Made by a program: the position numbers and the translations under genes
The notes under the pieces: generated by a model
Told to the model about the DNA's origin: nothing
What the model saw: only the letters and a program-made list of their open reading frames with translations
The model's database searches: none
From: an uncultured Acidobacteriota bacterium
GTDB lineage: Bacteria; Acidobacteriota; UBA6911
Direction: 5' to 3'
Length of the DNA: 64,000 bases
Assembly: GCA_963809485.1 (NCBI GenBank)
Contig: CAWEJX010000007.1
Location: 608,001 to 672,000 of the forward strand
Shown: positions 25,572 to 32,736 of the stretch, piece by piece
Layout: each line of letters begins with the position of its first letter
How positions within the stretch are numbered: the first letter of the stretch is position 1

Positions 25572-26351
25572 ATGCCTCGAGCAAAAAAACCCAAGCTGGC
25601 CTTCTGGAAATTTGCATCCTGTGACGGCTGCCAGATGACGCTTCTCGATTGTGAAGACGAGTTGCTTGCTGTTGCGAGTGAAATTGAAATCGCTAATTTT
25701 GCCGAAGCCACGAGCACCTTTATAAAGGGGCCCTACGACATTTCAATTGTCGAGGGATCCATTACCACACCCCAAGAGGAGGAGCGTATACACCGCATTC
25801 GCCGCTCATCCAAGTTCCTGGTGACCATTGGGGCATGCGCCTCCAGCGGAGGGATACAGTCTCTGCGCAATTTTAAAAACGTCCAGGAGTTTGTTTCTAT
25901 AGTCTATGCGACCCCGGCATACATTGAGACGCTCAACAAATCCACGCCGATGAAAGATCATATTCCTGTGGATTTCGAGCTACAGGGGTGTCCTCCGAAC
26001 AAATATCAGCTTCTGGAAGTGCTATCGGCATACCTGCATGGGCGGAAGCCGATCACTCCTCCCTATAGCCTGTGTCTCGATTGCAAGAGCCAAGGTATTG
26101 TCTGCGTCATGGTTGCCAACGGTATTCCTTGTATGGGCCCGGTAACCCATGCGGGCTGCGGCGCCCTATGCCCCTCGTATCGCCGCGGATGCTATAGTTG
26201 TTTCGGACCTAAGGAAACACCCAACACGGGCTCGCTGAGCGCATGGTTCAGCTCGCTGGGAAGGTCGAACCAGGATATTATCCGGTCTTTCCGCAGCTAC
26301 TATGGGTGGACTGAACCTTTTAGAAAAGAGAGTGAAGCGCTTGAGAAATAG
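25572..26351 (+). CDS. hydD: [NiFe] hydrogenase small (delta) subunit
   Basis: SCDGCQ, IGACA, GCPP, C-terminal Cys cluster. Confidence 0.9.
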
Positions 26352-26465
26352 GCAGACGGGCGTGAATATGAGGCGCGCGACAAAGTGCAACACTGCACGG
26401 GCGACCGGCCGCTCGCCCGTCGCAGTAGAAGGCTTGTGAGCAGTGCGCTTTTAAAGGCAAATTGC

Positions 26466-27752
26466 ATGAAAACCGTTAGCATCAAGATAGATTACCTTAC
26501 GCGGGTGGAAGGTGAAGGCGCACTGCGCGTCAAGATAAAGGAAGGCGCAGTGGAGGATGTGCAGTTACGGATCTTCGAGCCGCCGCGCATGTTCGAAGCA
26601 TTTATGCGCGGCCGCCACGCCTTTGAAGCTCCCGACCTTGCAGCGCGGATCTGCGGCATCTGCCCGATCGCCTATCAAATGAGCGCAGTCCATGCCGTGG
26701 AAGACGCTTTTGGACTGAAGATCGACGGCCCAATCCGCAATTTGCGCCGGCTGATTTACTGCGGGGAGTGGATTGAAAGCCATGCGCTGAGTATTTATAT
26801 GCTACACGCGCCCGACTTTCTGGGTTATCCCGGCGCTTTGGAAATGGCTGGGAAATATCCCGAGGCTCTGAATCGCGGCTTGCAGCTGAAAAAAACAGGA
26901 AACGAAATCGTCGCGCTCCTGGGCGGACGCGAAATCCACCCCATTAATGTCCGCGTTGGAGGTTTTTATCGGTCACCGGCCAAGCGCGATCTAGCAAAGC
27001 TCGCCGAACGCCTTAAATGGGCTCGAGAAGCAGCGCTTGAAACCAGCCGCTGGGTTTCAGCCTTTGAGTTTCCGGATTGCGAGCGAGATTACGAGTTCGT
27101 TGCGCTCTCACATCCGAGCGAATACCCGCTGAATGAGGGGCGCATGGTCTCTAATAAAGGTCTGGATATTGAGGCGTCCCGATTCGACGACTACTTTGCA
27201 GAGGAGCACGTAAAACACTCTACGGCACTTCACTCGGCGATTATCCAGCGAGGGTCCTATTTCGTAGGTCCGCTGGCCCGTTTCAATCTCAATTTTGACA
27301 AGCTGTCCCCTCTTGCGCGCGAGGCCGCCGAGGCTGCCGGAATGAAGCCTCCCTGCCACAATCCTTTCCGCAGCATTATCGCGCGCGCTGTTGAAATTCT
27401 ACACAGCTGCGATGAAGCGCTGCGCTTGATCGAAAACTTTGAAATGCCGGAAAAGCCCGCGGCGGAAGTTCAGATTCGAGAAGGCATAGGATACGCCTGC
27501 ACCGAAGCCCCCCGCGGCGTTTTGTATCACCGCTACCGCATCGACAACGAGGGCAACCTTCTCGACGCCAGGATAGTGCCGCCAACCTCGCAAAATCAGA
27601 AGTCCATCGAAGAAGATCTGCGGCAGTTCATCCCCAGGTATTCGAATCTGCCAAAAGAGAAGATCACGGCATTTTGCGAGCATGCAATACGTAACTATGA
27701 TCCGTGCATCTCCTGCTCCACGCACGTGATCAAAATCTGGAATTCCATATGA
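26466..27752 (+). CDS. hydA: [NiFe] hydrogenase large (alpha) subunit, group 3b
   Basis: TRVEGEG, RICGICP (L1), [14 protein letters not shown] (L2). Confidence 0.93.
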
Positions 27753-28044
27753 TTCGAGATCGAGAATTTTCAGCTTGAGCCGCAGAAACTATCTGCTTTC
27801 AGCAGAAGTGTGGGGAAATTCCCGTATGGTGAATATTCTTCGCCGTGGATCAAATGCGCTATTTCCGCAGGTTGTCATCAGAATGGCGGGACCTGTTCGG
27901 CCGATCTCAATAGACTGACGGACGAATTCTGGATACTGGGGAGGAAAAGGACCGGATTAACCATTTGGTTCCTCGGCCATGCATGGACGGCTGTGCACAC
28001 GATCAGGCTGCTCCCGAACGGCTTCCGTGATGAATCGACCGAGG

Positions 28045-28296
28045 TCATGCAGCTTCGCGGAAATAGTAACGCTGCAGTCCACCGAGCCGTTGCCGGCACA
28101 CGACCTCACCGGCCCTCTCGCCGACTTCCCTCCCAGGAATCAGCAGCCGGTTGCCCACCCCCTGATGGTTGCGCTCCGTAAGAAAATGATCCACATAGCT
28201 TACTGTGGCGGCATGGAGCGATTTCTCTCCGAAGAAGATCATGCGCTCCAGGCACTCCTCCTTCAGGCTTCGCATGAACCGCTCAATGTGCGCACT
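28045..28296 (-). pseudogene. rve transposase, C-terminal part displaced by insertion
   Basis: AHIERFMRSLKEECL...ERNHQG...RLGGLQRYY. Confidence 0.9.
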
Positions 28297-28646
28297 GGAA
28301 AAAGCCATCAACTGCGAAGTATTCGACAGAACCGCAACGATTTTTCACAGTAACGCATCCCTTCCATCCTCTTCATAACCGCCGGTTCGAGCTGGTTGCT
28401 TGTAGGCCAGCCTGGGGTGAGTCCAGAGTGTACTTCTACAACGAAGAGAATTGCCTTATAGCGATACCAACTGCATGGACCGATGCGGCAGCGCCGGATC
28501 CGTTCGTAGCCATTGCAGCGGGCAGGGCCTGCTTCCGCACGGAAGATCTCATTCAGCTCGCAGAGCTGGTGACGTTCTGTAAAAGCAAAATGCCCAAGAA
28601 AAGAGTCCGCGCAACATCTGTAAAGGAAAAGACGCCGCATGTGTAA
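28293..28646 (+). CDS. THPFHP-motif protein (DUF5372-like) with no upstream start in the integrated state
   Basis: Frame open from the att core through VTHPFHPL...PTAWTD...DPF...FR; in-frame TGA at 28275; first GTG only at 28428. Confidence 0.75.
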   Translation, partial: HWKKPSTAKYSTEPQRFFTVTHPFHPLHNRRFELVACRPAWGESRVYFYNEENCLIAIPTAWTDAAAPDPFVAIAAGRACFRTEDLIQLAELVTFCKSKMPKKRVRATSVKEKTPHV

Positions 28647-28794
28647 GAGTAATATCGCCGCATATCCGTTGTGCGCATCTGCAAACATTATTGATGGTAT
28701 GCGCATGATATGCTTGATAACGGCTAGCGTACGGTTGATGTCAACACGATTATCCTTGACATGCGGAGAGGAATAAGGCGTATATATTATTACA

Positions 28795-29265
28795 ATGAAA
28801 AAACAATTGCGCACAGCCGACCCAAAGATAAAAGCACTGAAACAGCAAGGAACCCTGAATCCTCATCCCGAACGGGTAACCGATTCACTCTTCCTCGAAA
28901 GCGAATTCTTCAATGCACGTGACGTAGTTCAGGTCAAGTACGAGATGCTGCGGCGGGTCGAAGCCGAGGGGAAGTCGGTGACTGCCGCTGCTGCCGCCTT
29001 CGGCCTCTCACGGCCAGCATTTTACCAAGCTCAGTCAATCCTGCGGCAAGATGGCCTTCCCGGGCTCATCCCCAAAAAACGGGGTCCCCGAAGTGGTCAT
29101 AAGCTTAGCGAAGAAGTCGTCGATTACATTGAGGCGGCCCGGGCTGCAAGCCAATCACCAACTGTTTCGGAGTTGATTTCCCTGGTCACCGAGCGCTTTG
29201 GCATTAAAGTTCACCGTCGCACCGTTGAGCGCGCCCTGCGCCGGCGGGAAAAAAAACAGCTATGA
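28795..29265 (+). CDS. Helix-turn-helix protein of the element
   Basis: VQVKYEMLR, SVTAAAAAFGLSRPAFYQ, GLIPKKRGP, VHRRTVERAL; TTGACA at 28756. Confidence 0.85.
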   Translation: MKKQLRTADPKIKALKQQGTLNPHPERVTDSLFLESEFFNARDVVQVKYEMLRRVEAEGKSVTAAAAAFGLSRPAFYQAQSILRQDGLPGLIPKKRGPRSGHKLSEEVVDYIEAARAASQSPTVSELISLVTERFGIKVHRRTVERALRRREKKQL

Positions 29266-29579
29266 AAGCCAGAAGGCAAGTTGATCAGGGACCTGATGCA
29301 CTGATGCGGATCAAAACGGCATACGAAAAACTGCGCAAACAGGCAATCGATCAAAGTTGTTGCACTCAAGGAGAACTTGGACTTGCCGTCTTGAAGTATC
29401 AAGGATTGGCGGCATGGATCGATGCGTGGTGGACCTATGCGAGCCCGGTTGTCCCTGAAGGCGCCGACAGCAAAATGGCTGACGACTTCCTTCCTGCGGG
29501 ATTACAGGGCGACATCGTAATGGTACTGTCGAGTATGGTTTTCCATGCGGCATCCACAGAGGTGAGCTATGGCGAGTGA
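29262..29579 (+). CDS. Hypothetical protein of the element
   Basis: ATGA overlap with HTH gene, overlaps recombinase start; YEKLR..GLAAW. Confidence 0.7.
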   Translation: MKARRQVDQGPDALMRIKTAYEKLRKQAIDQSCCTQGELGLAVLKYQGLAAWIDAWWTYASPVVPEGADSKMADDFLPAGLQGDIVMVLSSMVFHAASTEVSYGE

Positions 29580-31650
29580 GGGGAATCAGAAGATCCGGCC
29601 GATCCACGTTCAACGGAATGCCTATTTGTACATACGGCAATCGACGCTCCGACAGGTTTTGGAAAATACTGAAAGTACAAAACGCCAGTATGCCTTGAAG
29701 CAGCGCGCAGTTGCGTTGGGATGGCCCCAGGAGCGTATCATTGTGCTGGATACGGATCTGGGCCAATCAGGCGCAGCCGCTGCAGACCGCGAGGGTTTCC
29801 AAAAATTGGTGACCGAAGTTGGGTTAGGGCATGCAGGCTTGGTGATGGGTTTAGAGGTTTCTCGCCTTGCACGAAATTCGGCCGACTGGCATCGGCTGCT
29901 CGAAATGTGTGCACTGAGCGATACACTCATACTGGACGAGGATGGTATTTACGATCCGGCGCACTTTAATGACCGCCTGCTGCTCGGTCTCAAAGGTACG
30001 ATGAGTGAAGCCGAACTGCACATGCTTCGGGCTCGGCTTTTGGGCGGTATCGTGAATAAGGCACGGCGAGGTGAACTAGAGTGCCCACTTCCCATTGGTT
30101 TCATCTACGATGCAACAGGCAAAGTCGTGATTGATCCCGACCGGCAGGTTCAGGAGAGCATCCGCATGTTCTTCCGGACTTTTCGTCGTACGGGGTCTGC
30201 AACAGCAACAGTGAAAGCGTTTCGAAACAAGGGCCTGCTCTTTCCACGACGAGCCGATAATCATCAGAAGGGAGACTTGGCGTGGGGCCCCCTTTTACTC
30301 CATCGCGCCTTATGGCTGCTGCACAATCCACGCTTTGCGGGAGCATTTTTCTTTGGGCGTACTCGACAGCGCAAGTATGGCTCTAATGTTAGCAGTAGGA
30401 AATTACCGCGGGAGGAATGGATTGCGTTTATTCCCAATGCGCATCCGGGCTACATTTCTTGGGACGAATTCGAACAGAACCAGAAATGCCTGACCGAAAA
30501 CTCGGCGGCCCACGGCACCGACCGCCGCAAGAGCCCGCCAAGAGAAGGTCCTGCTTTGTTACAGGGGTTGGTGATCTGTGGAGTATGCGGCCGGCGTATG
30601 ACGGTTCGTTATCATGGTAGGAGACAAGGACTTCAGCCTGACTATGTGTGCCAGCGCGAAGGGATAGAACGCGGAGAGAGGATTTGCCAGCATATCCCGG
30701 GAGCGAATATCGACGAGGCTGTAGGAGCTCTTCTGGTTGAGGCTGTGAGTCCCATGGCTCTAGAAGTGACGCTGGCAGTGCAGCAGGAATTGCAGACACG
30801 TCTGAGTGAAGCAGACGCACTGCGAAAAAAACACGTCGAGCGAGCTCAGTATGAGGCGGATCTTGCCCGGCGGCGTTTTCTCCGTGTAGATCCAGAGAAC
30901 CGGCTTGTAGCTGCCTCACTTGAGGCTGAGTGGAACGAGAAACTCCGAGTGCTCGATGAGCGACAGCAAGAGTATCAGCGGGAATGCGAAAGGGATCGGA
31001 AGCTCCTTGATGAAAAGACAAGCACGCAGGTTCTTACTCTTGCAAGTGATTTTCCCAAACTCTGGCAAGATCAGCGGACAGAGGACCGCGATCGAAAGCG
31101 AATGTTGCGGCTCTTGATCGAAGATGTGACTCTTATTAGGAACAAAGAAATCAGCGCCAGTGTCCGCTTCCGAGGGGGAGCCACCAGGATACTGACACTG
31201 CCTCTTCCGCCTCCGGCATGGAAGATCCGGCAGACCAGTCCTGAAGTGCTCGCCGAGATCGACCGGCTGCTCGACAACCATACGGACTCGGAGATTTCCG
31301 TGATTCTCACCGAACGCGGATATCGCTCAGGCGAGGGAAAGTCCATTAATCACGCAATGGTCTACCGTCTTTGCCGCGAGTATGCAATGAAAACACGATA
31401 TCAACGACTCCGCGATCTTGGGATGATGACAGTTAATGAGACAGCAGCCAGACTCGATATCAATCCCGGAACGGTCAAGAAGTGGAAACGTGGAGGTTAT
31501 CTACACGCCCACTGGTACAATGACCATTCTTATCTCATCGAACGTCCTGGAAACAATAGGCCGCTTAAGCACAAGAGAAAACCGGGATGCTATCGATCAA
31601 AGGCAGAAAGAGCGACCCAAATTACGCATGAGGTGCAGTATGAAGCATAA
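29569..31650 (+). CDS. Large serine recombinase
   Basis: YIRQST catalytic Ser, DLGQSG, EVSRLARN, LHNPRFAG, zinc ribbon CGVCG, coiled coil, C-terminal HTH ending EVQYEA. Confidence 0.95.
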   Translation: MASEGNQKIRPIHVQRNAYLYIRQSTLRQVLENTESTKRQYALKQRAVALGWPQERIIVLDTDLGQSGAAAADREGFQKLVTEVGLGHAGLVMGLEVSRLARNSADWHRLLEMCALSDTLILDEDGIYDPAHFNDRLLLGLKGTMSEAELHMLRARLLGGIVNKARRGELECPLPIGFIYDATGKVVIDPDRQVQESIRMFFRTFRRTGSATATVKAFRNKGLLFPRRADNHQKGDLAWGPLLLHRALWLLHNPRFAGAFFFGRTRQRKYGSNVSSRKLPREEWIAFIPNAHPGYISWDEFEQNQKCLTENSAAHGTDRRKSPPREGPALLQGLVICGVCGRRMTVRYHGRRQGLQPDYVCQREGIERGERICQHIPGANIDEAVGALLVEAVSPMALEVTLAVQQELQTRLSEADALRKKHVERAQYEADLARRRFLRVDPENRLVAASLEAEWNEKLRVLDERQQEYQRECERDRKLLDEKTSTQVLTLASDFPKLWQDQRTEDRDRKRMLRLLIEDVTLIRNKEISASVRFRGGATRILTLPLPPPAWKIRQTSPEVLAEIDRLLDNHTDSEISVILTERGYRSGEGKSINHAMVYRLCREYAMKTRYQRLRDLGMMTVNETAARLDINPGTVKKWKRGGYLHAHWYNDHSYLIERPGNNRPLKHKRKPGCYRSKAERATQITHEVQYEA

Positions 31651-32632
31651 GCACTCAAATTCGGGGATCGTGCCGGCAGGCGGAGCGGCTTCACTCCGAC
31701 ATCCTCAAACGTGCCCCGGAACGCTTCCGAGAATTTCGTGTCTCGGTCCATCAGCAAGTATCGATTGCCACGAAGGAATCCGTCATCGGCGTCAGTCACA
31801 TTCCTGGCAACCTGAAGCAGCCAGGCTTCATCTGGATTGGTGGTGAGACCAGCAAAATGAATCCGTCGGGTTGCAATCTCCATGAAGAACAGCAGATAGT
31901 ATGTAACCAATCCCTTCTTCGTCCAAATCCCGATCGCTGTGAAATCAACCGAGGCAAGCATATCCCAGTGTGTGTTGAGGAATTCCTTCCAGCTGCCCTG
32001 TCTCTTTCGATCCGGGGCCGGGTCTATCGCATGGGCCCTCAGAATGTTTGCGACTGCCGTATCCGAAATCACGCTTCCGAGATTCGCGACTGCGCCCTGG
32101 ATGCGCTTGTAGCCCCAGCGTCGGATTTTCCTTAGCCAATTTGCAGAACGAGTTCACGATCTCCTGCGCAATCGGCGGCCGTCCGGCGCTCTGTCGTCGC
32201 TGGCTGTAGTCCCAGTGTCGTGCGACCAATTCACGATGCCAGCGAAGAATCGTTTCCGGAGTTACAATCCCAGCGACCTGCTCGAGCATCTTCCGACCGA
32301 GGATCTTGCCTTTGACGGCAAGGCGGCGCCGCTGTTCTTCATTCAGCAGGATTCGTCTTTTCCCCAGCTTCTGCCGCAACACACGATTTTCAACCAGAAG
32401 GTATTCGATCACATCCTGCTGCCGACGATTGACCCAGCCAGCGAGAACCAAAAGCAATAACTGCCAGGGGTGCAAAAGTACCTTCACATTCTCCTCCGGA
32501 ATTGCAGTGAGAATCTGCAGCATCCGGCAACACCGACTGCCTGTCAAGCCTCGTAGTGGACGCAACTGGCTTGCTCGGCAAGCGGTTCTATTTGCAGGCA
32601 TTTACGGCACGACTGAGTTTTTTCACCCTACG
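31651..32632 (-). pseudogene. rve transposase, N-terminal part (frameshifted) with probable left end
   Basis: EYLLVENRVLR, VTPETILRWHR, SVDF, LLMDRDTKF, RSPNL; end-like cgtagggtgaaaaaactcagtc at about 32611-32632. Confidence 0.85.
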
Positions 32633-32736
32633 CCATGGTGAGAGAATGAAGCGCTGTTGGGCTTCTAAAAGGGTCAAGAGCACCAAGCCAGCTTCCATCC
32701 GCGGATCTCGGTGGAACCGGGCAGCGCGATCCGGCT

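Follow-up and report, generated by a model that had tools for sequence, protein, structure and literature searches.

The choice that serine integrases make between integration and excision is central to the biology of phages and other mobile elements, as well as to genome engineering. In the described pairs phiC31 Int/gp3, Bxb1 Int/gp47 and SPbeta SprA/SprB, the integrase is joined by a small, unrelated cofactor, the recombination directionality factor (RDF), which is encoded by an ordinary gene, expressible from the integrated element, and drives excision. Here we describe an element of 3.3 kb lying in a stretch of 64,000 nucleotides (nt) from an uncultured Acidobacteriota bacterium (assembly GCA_963809485.1, contig CAWEJX010000007.1, positions 608,001 to 672,000), to which we refer as a whole as the window. 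The element encodes a large serine recombinase (LSR) at its right end and, at its left end, a protein of Pfam family DUF5372 whose reading frame has no start codon as long as the element is integrated. The reading that we favour, with a probability of about 0.7, is that the attachment site attP splits the start of the DUF5372 gene, and that DUF5372 is a directionality cofactor made only from the circular element or from a head-to-tail tandem.

The recombinase belongs to the same enzyme class as the phage-type integrases (as judged by Pfam), with a modelled coiled coil and attachment sites built of a central dinucleotide and two arms. The element itself differs from theirs in being much smaller and in carrying no phage or conjugation genes, and its DUF5372 protein has no fold match in PDB at E <= 0.001. 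As with the known RDFs, we are dealing with a small unrelated partner, here predicted to sit at the junction of the second DNA-binding domain (DBD2) and the coiled coil; in contrast to them, its gene is startless in the integrated state.

Expression signals that exist only after end joining have precedents. In Tn4451 (recombinase TnpX), IS911 and IS30, the joined ends build a circle-only junction promoter from separate -35 and -10 halves, which serves re-insertion. IS110/IS621 belong to the same group; for IS621, the bridge RNA is reported to be weakly expressed from integrated loci (PMC13626964). The element in the window would likewise gain an expression signal by end joining, but what is joined is a ribosome binding site with five codons to the body of a gene, and the product would be a cofactor rather than the recombinase; transcription of the joined gene would be supplied by the upstream LSR operon. 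Attachment sites within genes are also known. The integrase gene of SSV1-type archaeal viruses is split by its own attP, and in the integration-dependent immunity of mycobacteriophage BPs, attP changes the 3' end of the repressor gene, both forms being translated. These systems share with ours an attP inside coding sequence and different products encoded by the integrated and free states. Here, however, it is the 5' end with its start signals that is removed, which would make an all-or-none switch of a recombinase partner; in SSV1 it is the integrase itself that is split, and the enzyme of our element is a serine, not a tyrosine, recombinase.

The multi-targeting LSRs (TndX, TnpX and the DUF4368 clade), as presented in the main-text passages of Durrant et al. 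(2022; PMC10083194), similarly belong to small non-phage elements that use many sites with a motif around a TT core. Our LSR differs from those there described in lacking DUF4368, and its target is not a short AT-rich site but an extended conserved motif in the coding sequence of rve transposases; those same passages contain no DUF5372 and no split gene. A literature search, to which supplementary LSR tables were external, returned nothing on the function of DUF5372, on a transposase-hunting LSR family or on a cofactor start split by attP. What appears to be new here is the separation of a translation start from the gene of a putative recombinase cofactor, while the LSR enzyme and site design, junction promoters and attP-split genes are all known.

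Element ends and the DUF5372 reading frame

The LSR element spans positions 28297-31655 of the window (3359 bp, one copy of the core being counted) and sits antisense within the rve transposase gene of a host insertion sequence (IS). Its genes follow in the order DUF5372 open reading frame (ORF), a helix-turn-helix (HTH) gene, a small ORF and the gene of the 693-amino-acid (aa) LSR (Table 1). The latter matches PF00239, PF07508 and PF13408 and has no DUF4368; Pfam and a structural model together give the architecture of the class, i.e., a resolvase catalytic domain, a first DNA-binding domain, and a DBD2 zinc ribbon with an inserted coiled coil, the long helices 379-439, 445-479 and 482-516 of the model lying between zinc-ribbon strands.

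The boundaries of the element are fixed by its empty site. A contig of 1127 nt from wetland metagenome run X1 (depth 9.6) joins position 28291 to 31651, skipping 3359 bases; five letters (GCACT) fit both sides, and the contig differs from the window at 6 and 12 letters over 392 and 400 flanking bases, respectively. We correct the position of the left attachment core from 28293, as given in a preliminary description of this locus made from the sequence alone, to 28292. A precise empty site, together with a dinucleotide shared by the two ends (42 of 43 related loci, see below), is the pattern of conservative insertion.

In the integrated element, the frame that encodes the THPFHP motif of DUF5372 is interrupted by TGA at 28275-28277, is open from 28278 (ACC GCT CAA TGT GCG CAC TGG), and contains no ATG, GTG or TTG until GTG 28428; the sole ORF listed in this frame is 28428..28646, of 72 aa. 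Counted in codons of this frame from 28293, the Pfam domain (PF17342; E 5e-26; 90.9 bits, with the cut-off at 25) sets in at residue 20, and a start at 28428 would consequently lose the first 26 domain residues, THPFHP included. When the element ends are joined anywhere within the GCACT core, the sequence reads ATG AAG CAT AAG CAC TGG AAA AAG CCA, in frame with DUF5372, resulting in a protein of 121 aa. The ribosome site and the first five codons then come from the right end, and the remainder of the gene from the left end. On all these points (the stop, the startless frame, and the Shine-Dalgarno sequence and ATG at 31640 located in the last recombinase codons, EVQYEA), the preliminary description agreed with our own reading of the sequence, the ORF listing and the recomputed junction.

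Conservation of the split start in related elements

A DUF5372 alignment was scanned against prokaryotic genomes, one for each species, and gave at least 598 matching stretches, at least 503 of them confirmed by tblastn. We kept the best 80 of these confirmed relatives (L010-L089), which with the window make 81 loci; their hosts belong to many bacterial phyla, and one of the genomes bears an archaeal label. Right ends were anchored by the 8-nt repeat alone, allowing up to 2 mismatches and requiring a dinucleotide that matches the left end; the count of start codons was redone in this way, given that an earlier 15-mer anchor including ATGAAGC would bias it. This anchored 46 of the 81 loci. Three of them (L029, L030 and L063) were rejected as false hits, being 2-mismatch matches without the rest of the motif in loci that have no intact LSR ORF, which left 43 elements (42 relatives and the window). 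In two further cases (L044 and L055), the motif was visible by eye where the automatic rule failed, and these were left out of the counts.

The 43 elements have lengths of 3262-3546 bp. Both the HTH and the LSR genes are present in all 42 related elements with both ends placed, and the 105-aa ORF in 21 of the 42 (tblastn). Their LSRs are 53-65% identical to that of the window, and their DUF5372 proteins 40-57%.

The attachment sites follow a common geometry. The two arms carry the repeat GGTGCAGT as inverted copies, each separated by 14 nt from a central dinucleotide, which is TT in 41 elements, CT in the window, and AC in L021. When loci were anchored by the motif without requiring identity, the left and right dinucleotides agreed in 42 of 43, the exception being L055, with a misplaced left anchor. 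The left repeat lies within the DUF5372 frame, where it is read as the codons S-T-A-P. The distance between the triplet next to the right repeat and the left-arm codon TCA is 14 + 2 + 11 = 27 nt, and that between the left repeat and THPFHP is 45 nt in most elements, 42 in several and 48 in one; indels have thus occurred in threes, with the frame kept. The two arms are not equivalent: at mirror positions the left arm has TGACGG and the right arm ATGAAG, and at position -2, 91% of right arms have G, which forms GAGG, and 67% of left arms have C (46 rows, the 3 false hits included).

The triplet directly after the right repeat is ATG in 36 elements, GTG in 6 and CAC in 1. In the locus with CAC (L042), an ATG stands in frame 12 nt before this triplet and a TTG one codon after it, and positions 2 and 3 of the triplet are invariant in the 39 elements with the commonest spacing. 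A Shine-Dalgarno-like motif (GGAG, GAGG or AGGA) is found 4-16 nt upstream of this triplet in 40 of 43 elements, and before the codon that precedes THPFHP in 6 of 43. The stop codon of the LSR varies in position relative to the motif, being a TGA before it, an overlapping ATGA, or a TAA or TAG eight letters after the ATG, which indicates that the right-end motif is not conserved as LSR coding sequence. In the anchored loci, the LSR stop falls within ~30 nt of the start, which fits the translational coupling to the recombinase that had been suggested in the preliminary description.

The preliminary description had also made its case depend on the frame across the junction and on the absence of a conserved internal start. 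Both points turned out in its favour. The joined frame, from the triplet to THPFHP, is free of stops in all 43 elements and opens with ATG or GTG in 42, whereas each of the other frames contains stops in 35 of 43. Indeed, the DUF5372 frame is open for at least 21 codons upstream of THPFHP, beyond the crossover, in all 74 loci with an uncut left end. Between the crossover and THPFHP, neither the window nor 22 of the 43 elements have any ATG, GTG or TTG from which the gene could be expressed in the integrated state, as RDF genes can. Directly before THPFHP, 34 of the 81 loci have GTG and 47 have a non-start codon (GTC, ATC, GTA, ATA, GTT or ATT; GTA in the window). We also considered GTG 28428 of the window as an internal start for the 72-aa product, and rejected it: of the 81 loci, 37 have GTC and 34 have GTG at the homologous codon. 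Gene callers yield internally started short proteins similar to this product (P0001, P0003 and P0004). On the comparison of these sequences, the split-start arrangement of the related elements is not due to chance.

Naturally occurring joined ends

We searched for joined ends with a pattern consisting of the right repeat, RTG, 11 nt, TT, 53-59 nt, and the THPFHP codons, in which all three frames were allowed. Four metagenome contigs matched (L090-L093), and in three of them the 3' end of the LSR gene runs straight into an intact DUF5372 ORF. In L093, a 705-aa LSR frame ending in EVQYEA leads through GAGGTGCAGT and ATG into an ORF of 103 aa; the junction ORFs of L092 and L091 encode 102 and 112 aa, the latter with a GTG start. 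All three match PF17342 (E 3e-19, 3e-26 and 3e-14; 53-92 bits). Thus, of the circles that the preliminary description had called for, the joined ends with intact junction ORFs are found in relatives, on three contigs in which circles and tandems look alike. No terminal overlaps, as expected for circular molecules, were found in 28 short contigs. Recombination by the LSR on these sites is indicated indirectly, by the joined ends in relatives and by the near-identical copies of the element in diverged ISs described below.

Predicted structure of DUF5372 and its contact with the recombinase

An AlphaFold model of DUF5372 (13-row alignment, mean pLDDT 70.9) consists of a five-stranded barrel followed by two helices. 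A fold search against PDB with this model gave no match at E <= 0.001, the best being SH3-like barrels (eS4, NdhS and PsaE) with E >= 0.016, and in the ESM Atlas only DUF5372 clusters were found. Upstream of the domain, it is the openness of the linker alone that is conserved and not its residues, which fits the disordered tail of the model (pLDDT <50, residues 1-11).

We then modelled the LSR (32-row alignment) together with DUF5372. The complex reached an ipSAE of 0.72 in three runs, compared with 0.00 for the best of 3 controls. Of the solved complexes, 58 of 80 attain this mark, and of the mismatched pairs 2 of 110, counts that apply only approximately since our own alignments were used. 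At least 70% of contacts are common to the runs, with a partner pLDDT of at least 68. The predicted contacts on the LSR are residues 336-341, 392-412, 478-516 and 521-539, which in the LSR model (pLDDT 79.9) fall on strands of the zinc ribbon and on the long helices 379-439 and 482-516 in their proximal parts, i.e., at the base of the coiled coil. On the side of DUF5372, they comprise residues 23-27 (the PFHP motif), 58 and 69-100, while the tail encoded across the junction lies outside the interface. Passages of two structural studies describe RDFs of diverse structure that bind at the junction of DBD2 and the coiled coil and act by redirecting the coiled coil (PMC12286644, PMC11722253). DUF5372 is therefore predicted to bind the LSR at the base of its zinc ribbon and coiled coil, at the site of known directionality factors. 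The guess of a directionality factor, which the preliminary description had offered among others, gains support from this model.

Proposed mechanism and alternative explanations

We suggest the following sequence of events. In the integrated element, DUF5372 would not be made, its frame being startless, and the HTH protein, the 105-aa protein and the LSR would be the only products. Once the LSR joins the ends, in a circle or in a head-to-tail tandem, the DUF5372 gene would be rebuilt directly behind the LSR gene. Transcription of the operon of HTH, 105-aa ORF and LSR would then run into the rebuilt gene, and DUF5372 would be translated as the last, coupled cistron. By binding the LSR at the RDF site, it would allow the element to sense its own topology, with the recombinase altered only while the element is excised; re-integration would break the gene again and the cofactor would disappear. 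Most likely, DUF5372 favours re-integration or blocks re-excision. We infer this direction from the logic of circle-only expression, because a factor made by a non-replicating circle would be most useful for re-integration or against re-excision. If this mechanism is true, the presence of a predicted cofactor is wired to the topology of the element DNA through a split translation start, which would represent a new and very compact form of self-limiting recombination, with a cofactor that exists only while its cargo is excised. A domain of unknown function, present in hundreds of genomes, would moreover acquire a function, and the truncated or non-canonical starts that annotation pipelines give to its genes would be explained. 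One may go further and suppose, tentatively, that the RDF logic is reversed, so that the LSR alone excises and the cofactor assembled in the circle locks it into integration until integration destroys the gene. It is possible, though less likely than not, that under such logic the family consists of widespread 3.3-kb "hyperparasites" (at least 503 loci, plus the archaeon-labelled genome) that hunt the (K/N)G.(V/I)ER motif with a topological toggle free of outside regulation.

Several observations weigh against the split-start mechanism or limit the weight of its support. Of the 81 loci, 35 were not used in the counts, 17 of them cut by contig ends and 18 without a right end that could be recognised at a distance of 3.0-3.7 kb; an intact LSR is missing from many of the latter. 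The 43 elements do not amount to 43 independent tests, because the in-frame relation follows from the fixed 14+2+14 nt geometry. Among the natural junctions, L090 (5906 nt) is a decayed relic in which the right repeat and ATG are fused to the DUF5372 frame with a spacer 2 nt longer and out of frame, and no other element genes follow downstream. The joined-end pattern was not found in viral contigs or in 401 genomes of the window's phylum, and contigs of four public runs include no back-joined contig, although contig assemblies drop rare forms and are uninformative on circles or expression. The placement of DUF5372 in the complex model may partly reflect likeness to solved LSR-RDF complexes. 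Finally, DUF5372 proteins of one subfamily, with a longer N-terminus (described below), may carry a start of their own.

Other points on this side feed an alternative, in which the right-end GAGG...ATG is only part of a recombinase site and the integrated element translates DUF5372 from a start that is internal or non-canonical, such as the V or I codon before THPFHP. The ATG abuts GGTGCAGT, which is common to both arms, and it lies together with part of the GAGG in or next to the recombinase-binding repeat; a constraint on the DNA site alone could conserve both. The linker of ~10 codons between the left repeat and the domain has no third-position pattern such as coding periodicity would leave (1.37/1.35/1.44 bits, against 0.76/0.69/1.42 in the domain). 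The 34 GTG codons before THPFHP make up 54% of the valine codons at that place, compared with 38% GTG among the valine codons of LSR genes. GTG directly before THPFHP is the only candidate start in 14 of the 43 elements, another 7 have a different in-element start at scattered positions, and both gene callers and RefSeq annotate such genes with internal starts. Nevertheless, this explanation appears very unlikely to us, since it leaves 47 of 81 loci with a non-start codon at that place and Shine-Dalgarno-like motifs there in 6 of 43 only. The in-frame junction would on this explanation be a by-product of fixed attachment-site geometry, and against this the frame is open across repeat and crossover in every element while the other frames are closed in 35, indels come in threes, the two arms are asymmetric, and the start triplet varies only between A and G at its first position, save for one locus with a substitute in-frame ATG. 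A second alternative accepts the split gene and assigns DUF5372 the canonical role, promoting attL x attR and blocking attP x attB. A rare first or incoming circle would then trigger the excision of other integrated copies in a burst of positive feedback, with no help to re-integration. Its appeal is that the predicted site is that of excision-promoting RDFs, and that the two integrated copies of this genome would offer targets in trans. Yet an integration blocker made only by a non-replicating circle would hinder its own re-insertion, and a circle-only factor could not start the first excision; we consider this role for DUF5372 unlikely. As for the joined ends in metagenomes, they could be chromosomal head-to-tail tandems, from which DUF5372 would be expressed, for instance to mark or resolve multimers. 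The three contigs with intact junctions (L091-L093) are short (1.1-2.7 kb) and hold element sequence only, and from such junctions circles and tandems are indistinguishable. This is very improbable, given that no tandem was found in the 401 genomes of the phylum or in the window's genome, and that a circle is the established product when an LSR recombines attL and attR in direct repeat. The split-start mechanism with a cofactor confined to joined ends thus remains the reading that we prefer.

Mobility and targets

A second copy of the element is found in the same genome on contig C20, at the same place in another copy of the same IS (window ~27884-32633). The two element copies differ at 2 of 3359 positions, and the IS copies that host them at 40 of ~1390 aligned columns (Fisher p = 1.4e-19). 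This suggests that the element inserted independently into IS copies that had diverged, or that conversion acted on the element alone. Compared with the window, a single additional G is present in the C20 copy where 32032 aligns, and the T of 32121 is missing from it, and in the window the host transposase is split into overlapping frames at 31945-32601 and 31590-32072 (minus strand). To judge from these sequences, one of the two IS copies may carry frameshifts apart from the LSR insertion. Coverage of the element in the four public runs is patchy, and contigs of RNA run X20 cover only 27995-28244 of the host IS.

Transposase genes are the targets of related elements as well. We removed the element in silico from the 36 loci with enough right flank and read the opposite strand only. 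A minus-strand ORF of at least 170 aa was rebuilt across the joint in 32 of 36 loci, the transposase frame being opposite to the element genes in all 32 (one strand examined). The residues [K/N]-x-x-x-E stand just past the joint in 29 of the 36 printed contexts (manual count), as in ..SPQA|KGRVER.., ..TPQT|KGKVER.., ..DSFD|NALAET.. and ..SPWQ|NGFVES.., with ..SPNL|SAHIERF.. in the window. Pfam rve was detected in 19 of 32 right-flank fragments (loci with an open minus-strand frame of at least 60 aa, window included). The conserved target is the motif ..PQ(A/T)|(K/N)G.(V/I)ER.. in DDE (rve) transposase genes, which the family inactivates at this one coding motif. From their motif shapes, we take the targets to span several IS families. 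The element family behaves as a mobile element that parasitises other mobile elements and inactivates their transposase genes.

Other features of the element and its relatives

The features of the window are collected in Table 1.

Table 1. Positions of the LSR element, its attachment sites and its host insertion sequence in the window
Feature	Position	Strand	Basis
Host IS, 3' part (rve_3 part of transposase gene), left flank	27884..28291	-	Second-copy identity begins at ~27884; Pfam rve_3 on 28045-28311(-)
Left core copy GCACT	28292..28296	+	Sequence; empty-site contig joins 28291 to 31651
DUF5372 frame, startless when integrated	28293..28646	+	Stop TAA 28644-28646; THPFHP 28353-28370
Crossover dinucleotide CT, left	28295-28296	+	From family geometry
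Left (P') arm of attachment site	28297..28321	+	Inverted-repeat comparison
ACTGCGAA, inverted copy of right-end GGTGCAGT, 14 nt from crossover	28311-28318	+	Within 5' coding part of DUF5372 frame (codons S-T-A)
TTGACA hexamer, possible -35 of operon promoter (weak evidence)	28756..28761	+	Gap preceding HTH gene
HTH protein, 156 aa	28795..29265	+	Pfam HTH_28/23/32
ORF of 105 aa without family	29262..29579	+	ORF listing
LSR, 693 aa: Resolvase, Recombinase, Zn ribbon, coiled coil ~379-516, C-terminal HTH modules	29569..31650	+	Pfam, model
Right (P) arm of attachment site	31618..31655	+	Sequence, repeat anchoring
GAGG, Shine-Dalgarno-like	31630-31633	+	Right arm
Inverted repeat GGTGCAGT	31632-31639	+	Right arm
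Start codon ATG	31640-31642	+	Right arm
LSR stop TAA	31648-31650	+	LSR C-terminus EVQYEA
Right core GCACT; crossover CT	31651-31655; 31654-31655	+	Sequence, family geometry
Host IS, 5' part (rve transposase gene), right flank	31656..32633	-	Pfam, second genomic copy

A TTGACA hexamer occurs within ~250 nt upstream of the HTH match in 29 of the 43 elements; a scan of 28200-31800 for the sigma-70 consensus found no full site. The HTH protein is similar to the DNA-binding N-terminal region of IS481/IS630 transposases, matching positions 2-106 of the NCBIfam IS481 profile far below the family cut-off. It is thus a stand-alone, transposase-like DNA-binding domain in an element whose targets are transposase genes, and it may serve targeting or repression. 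No match to either DUF5372 or the 105-aa ORF was found in NCBIfam and PHROGs. Past its zinc ribbon, the LSR has extra helical modules (residues ~550-660), including one similar to HTH_17 at 619-657 (E 1e-4, below the Pfam cut-off). These modules might read an outer repeat, CAnC-N6-AT(G/C)A, which precedes GGTGCAGT in both arms.

In the element L021, from a genome labelled Candidatus Argoarchaeum ethanivorans, both ends carry the dinucleotide AC, the right repeat follows the LSR stop at a distance of ~50 nt, and no transposase motif is seen in the rebuilt target. Plasmid pNGR234a of Sinorhizobium fredii NGR234 contains three DUF5372 places, among them L094 (NC_000914.2 289024-289287). In RefSeq, the gene on this plasmid starts at an ATA codon 15 nt before THPFHP, in a frame that is open far upstream with no canonical start within the preceding 33 codons, which fits annotation pipelines having no proper start to choose. 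This copy is a diverged relative, with no intact LSR ORF and no right-end repeat (up to 1 mismatch) 2.8-4.4 kb downstream.

The DUF5372 subfamily with the longer N-terminus (P0008, P0013, P0014, P0016, P0017, P0021, P0023, P0033 and P0040) has ~24 conserved residues that start with M-[DG]-[KR]-[NS] (MDKN.../MGRS...LPQKVRITHPFHP). For DNA of this LPQKV subfamily, no relative was found in viral contigs, and plasmid matches had at most 44% identity. In the window, directly to the left of the host IS, lie ORFs (25572-27752, plus strand) that, on their translations, presumably encode proteins resembling the small and large subunits of [NiFe] hydrogenases.

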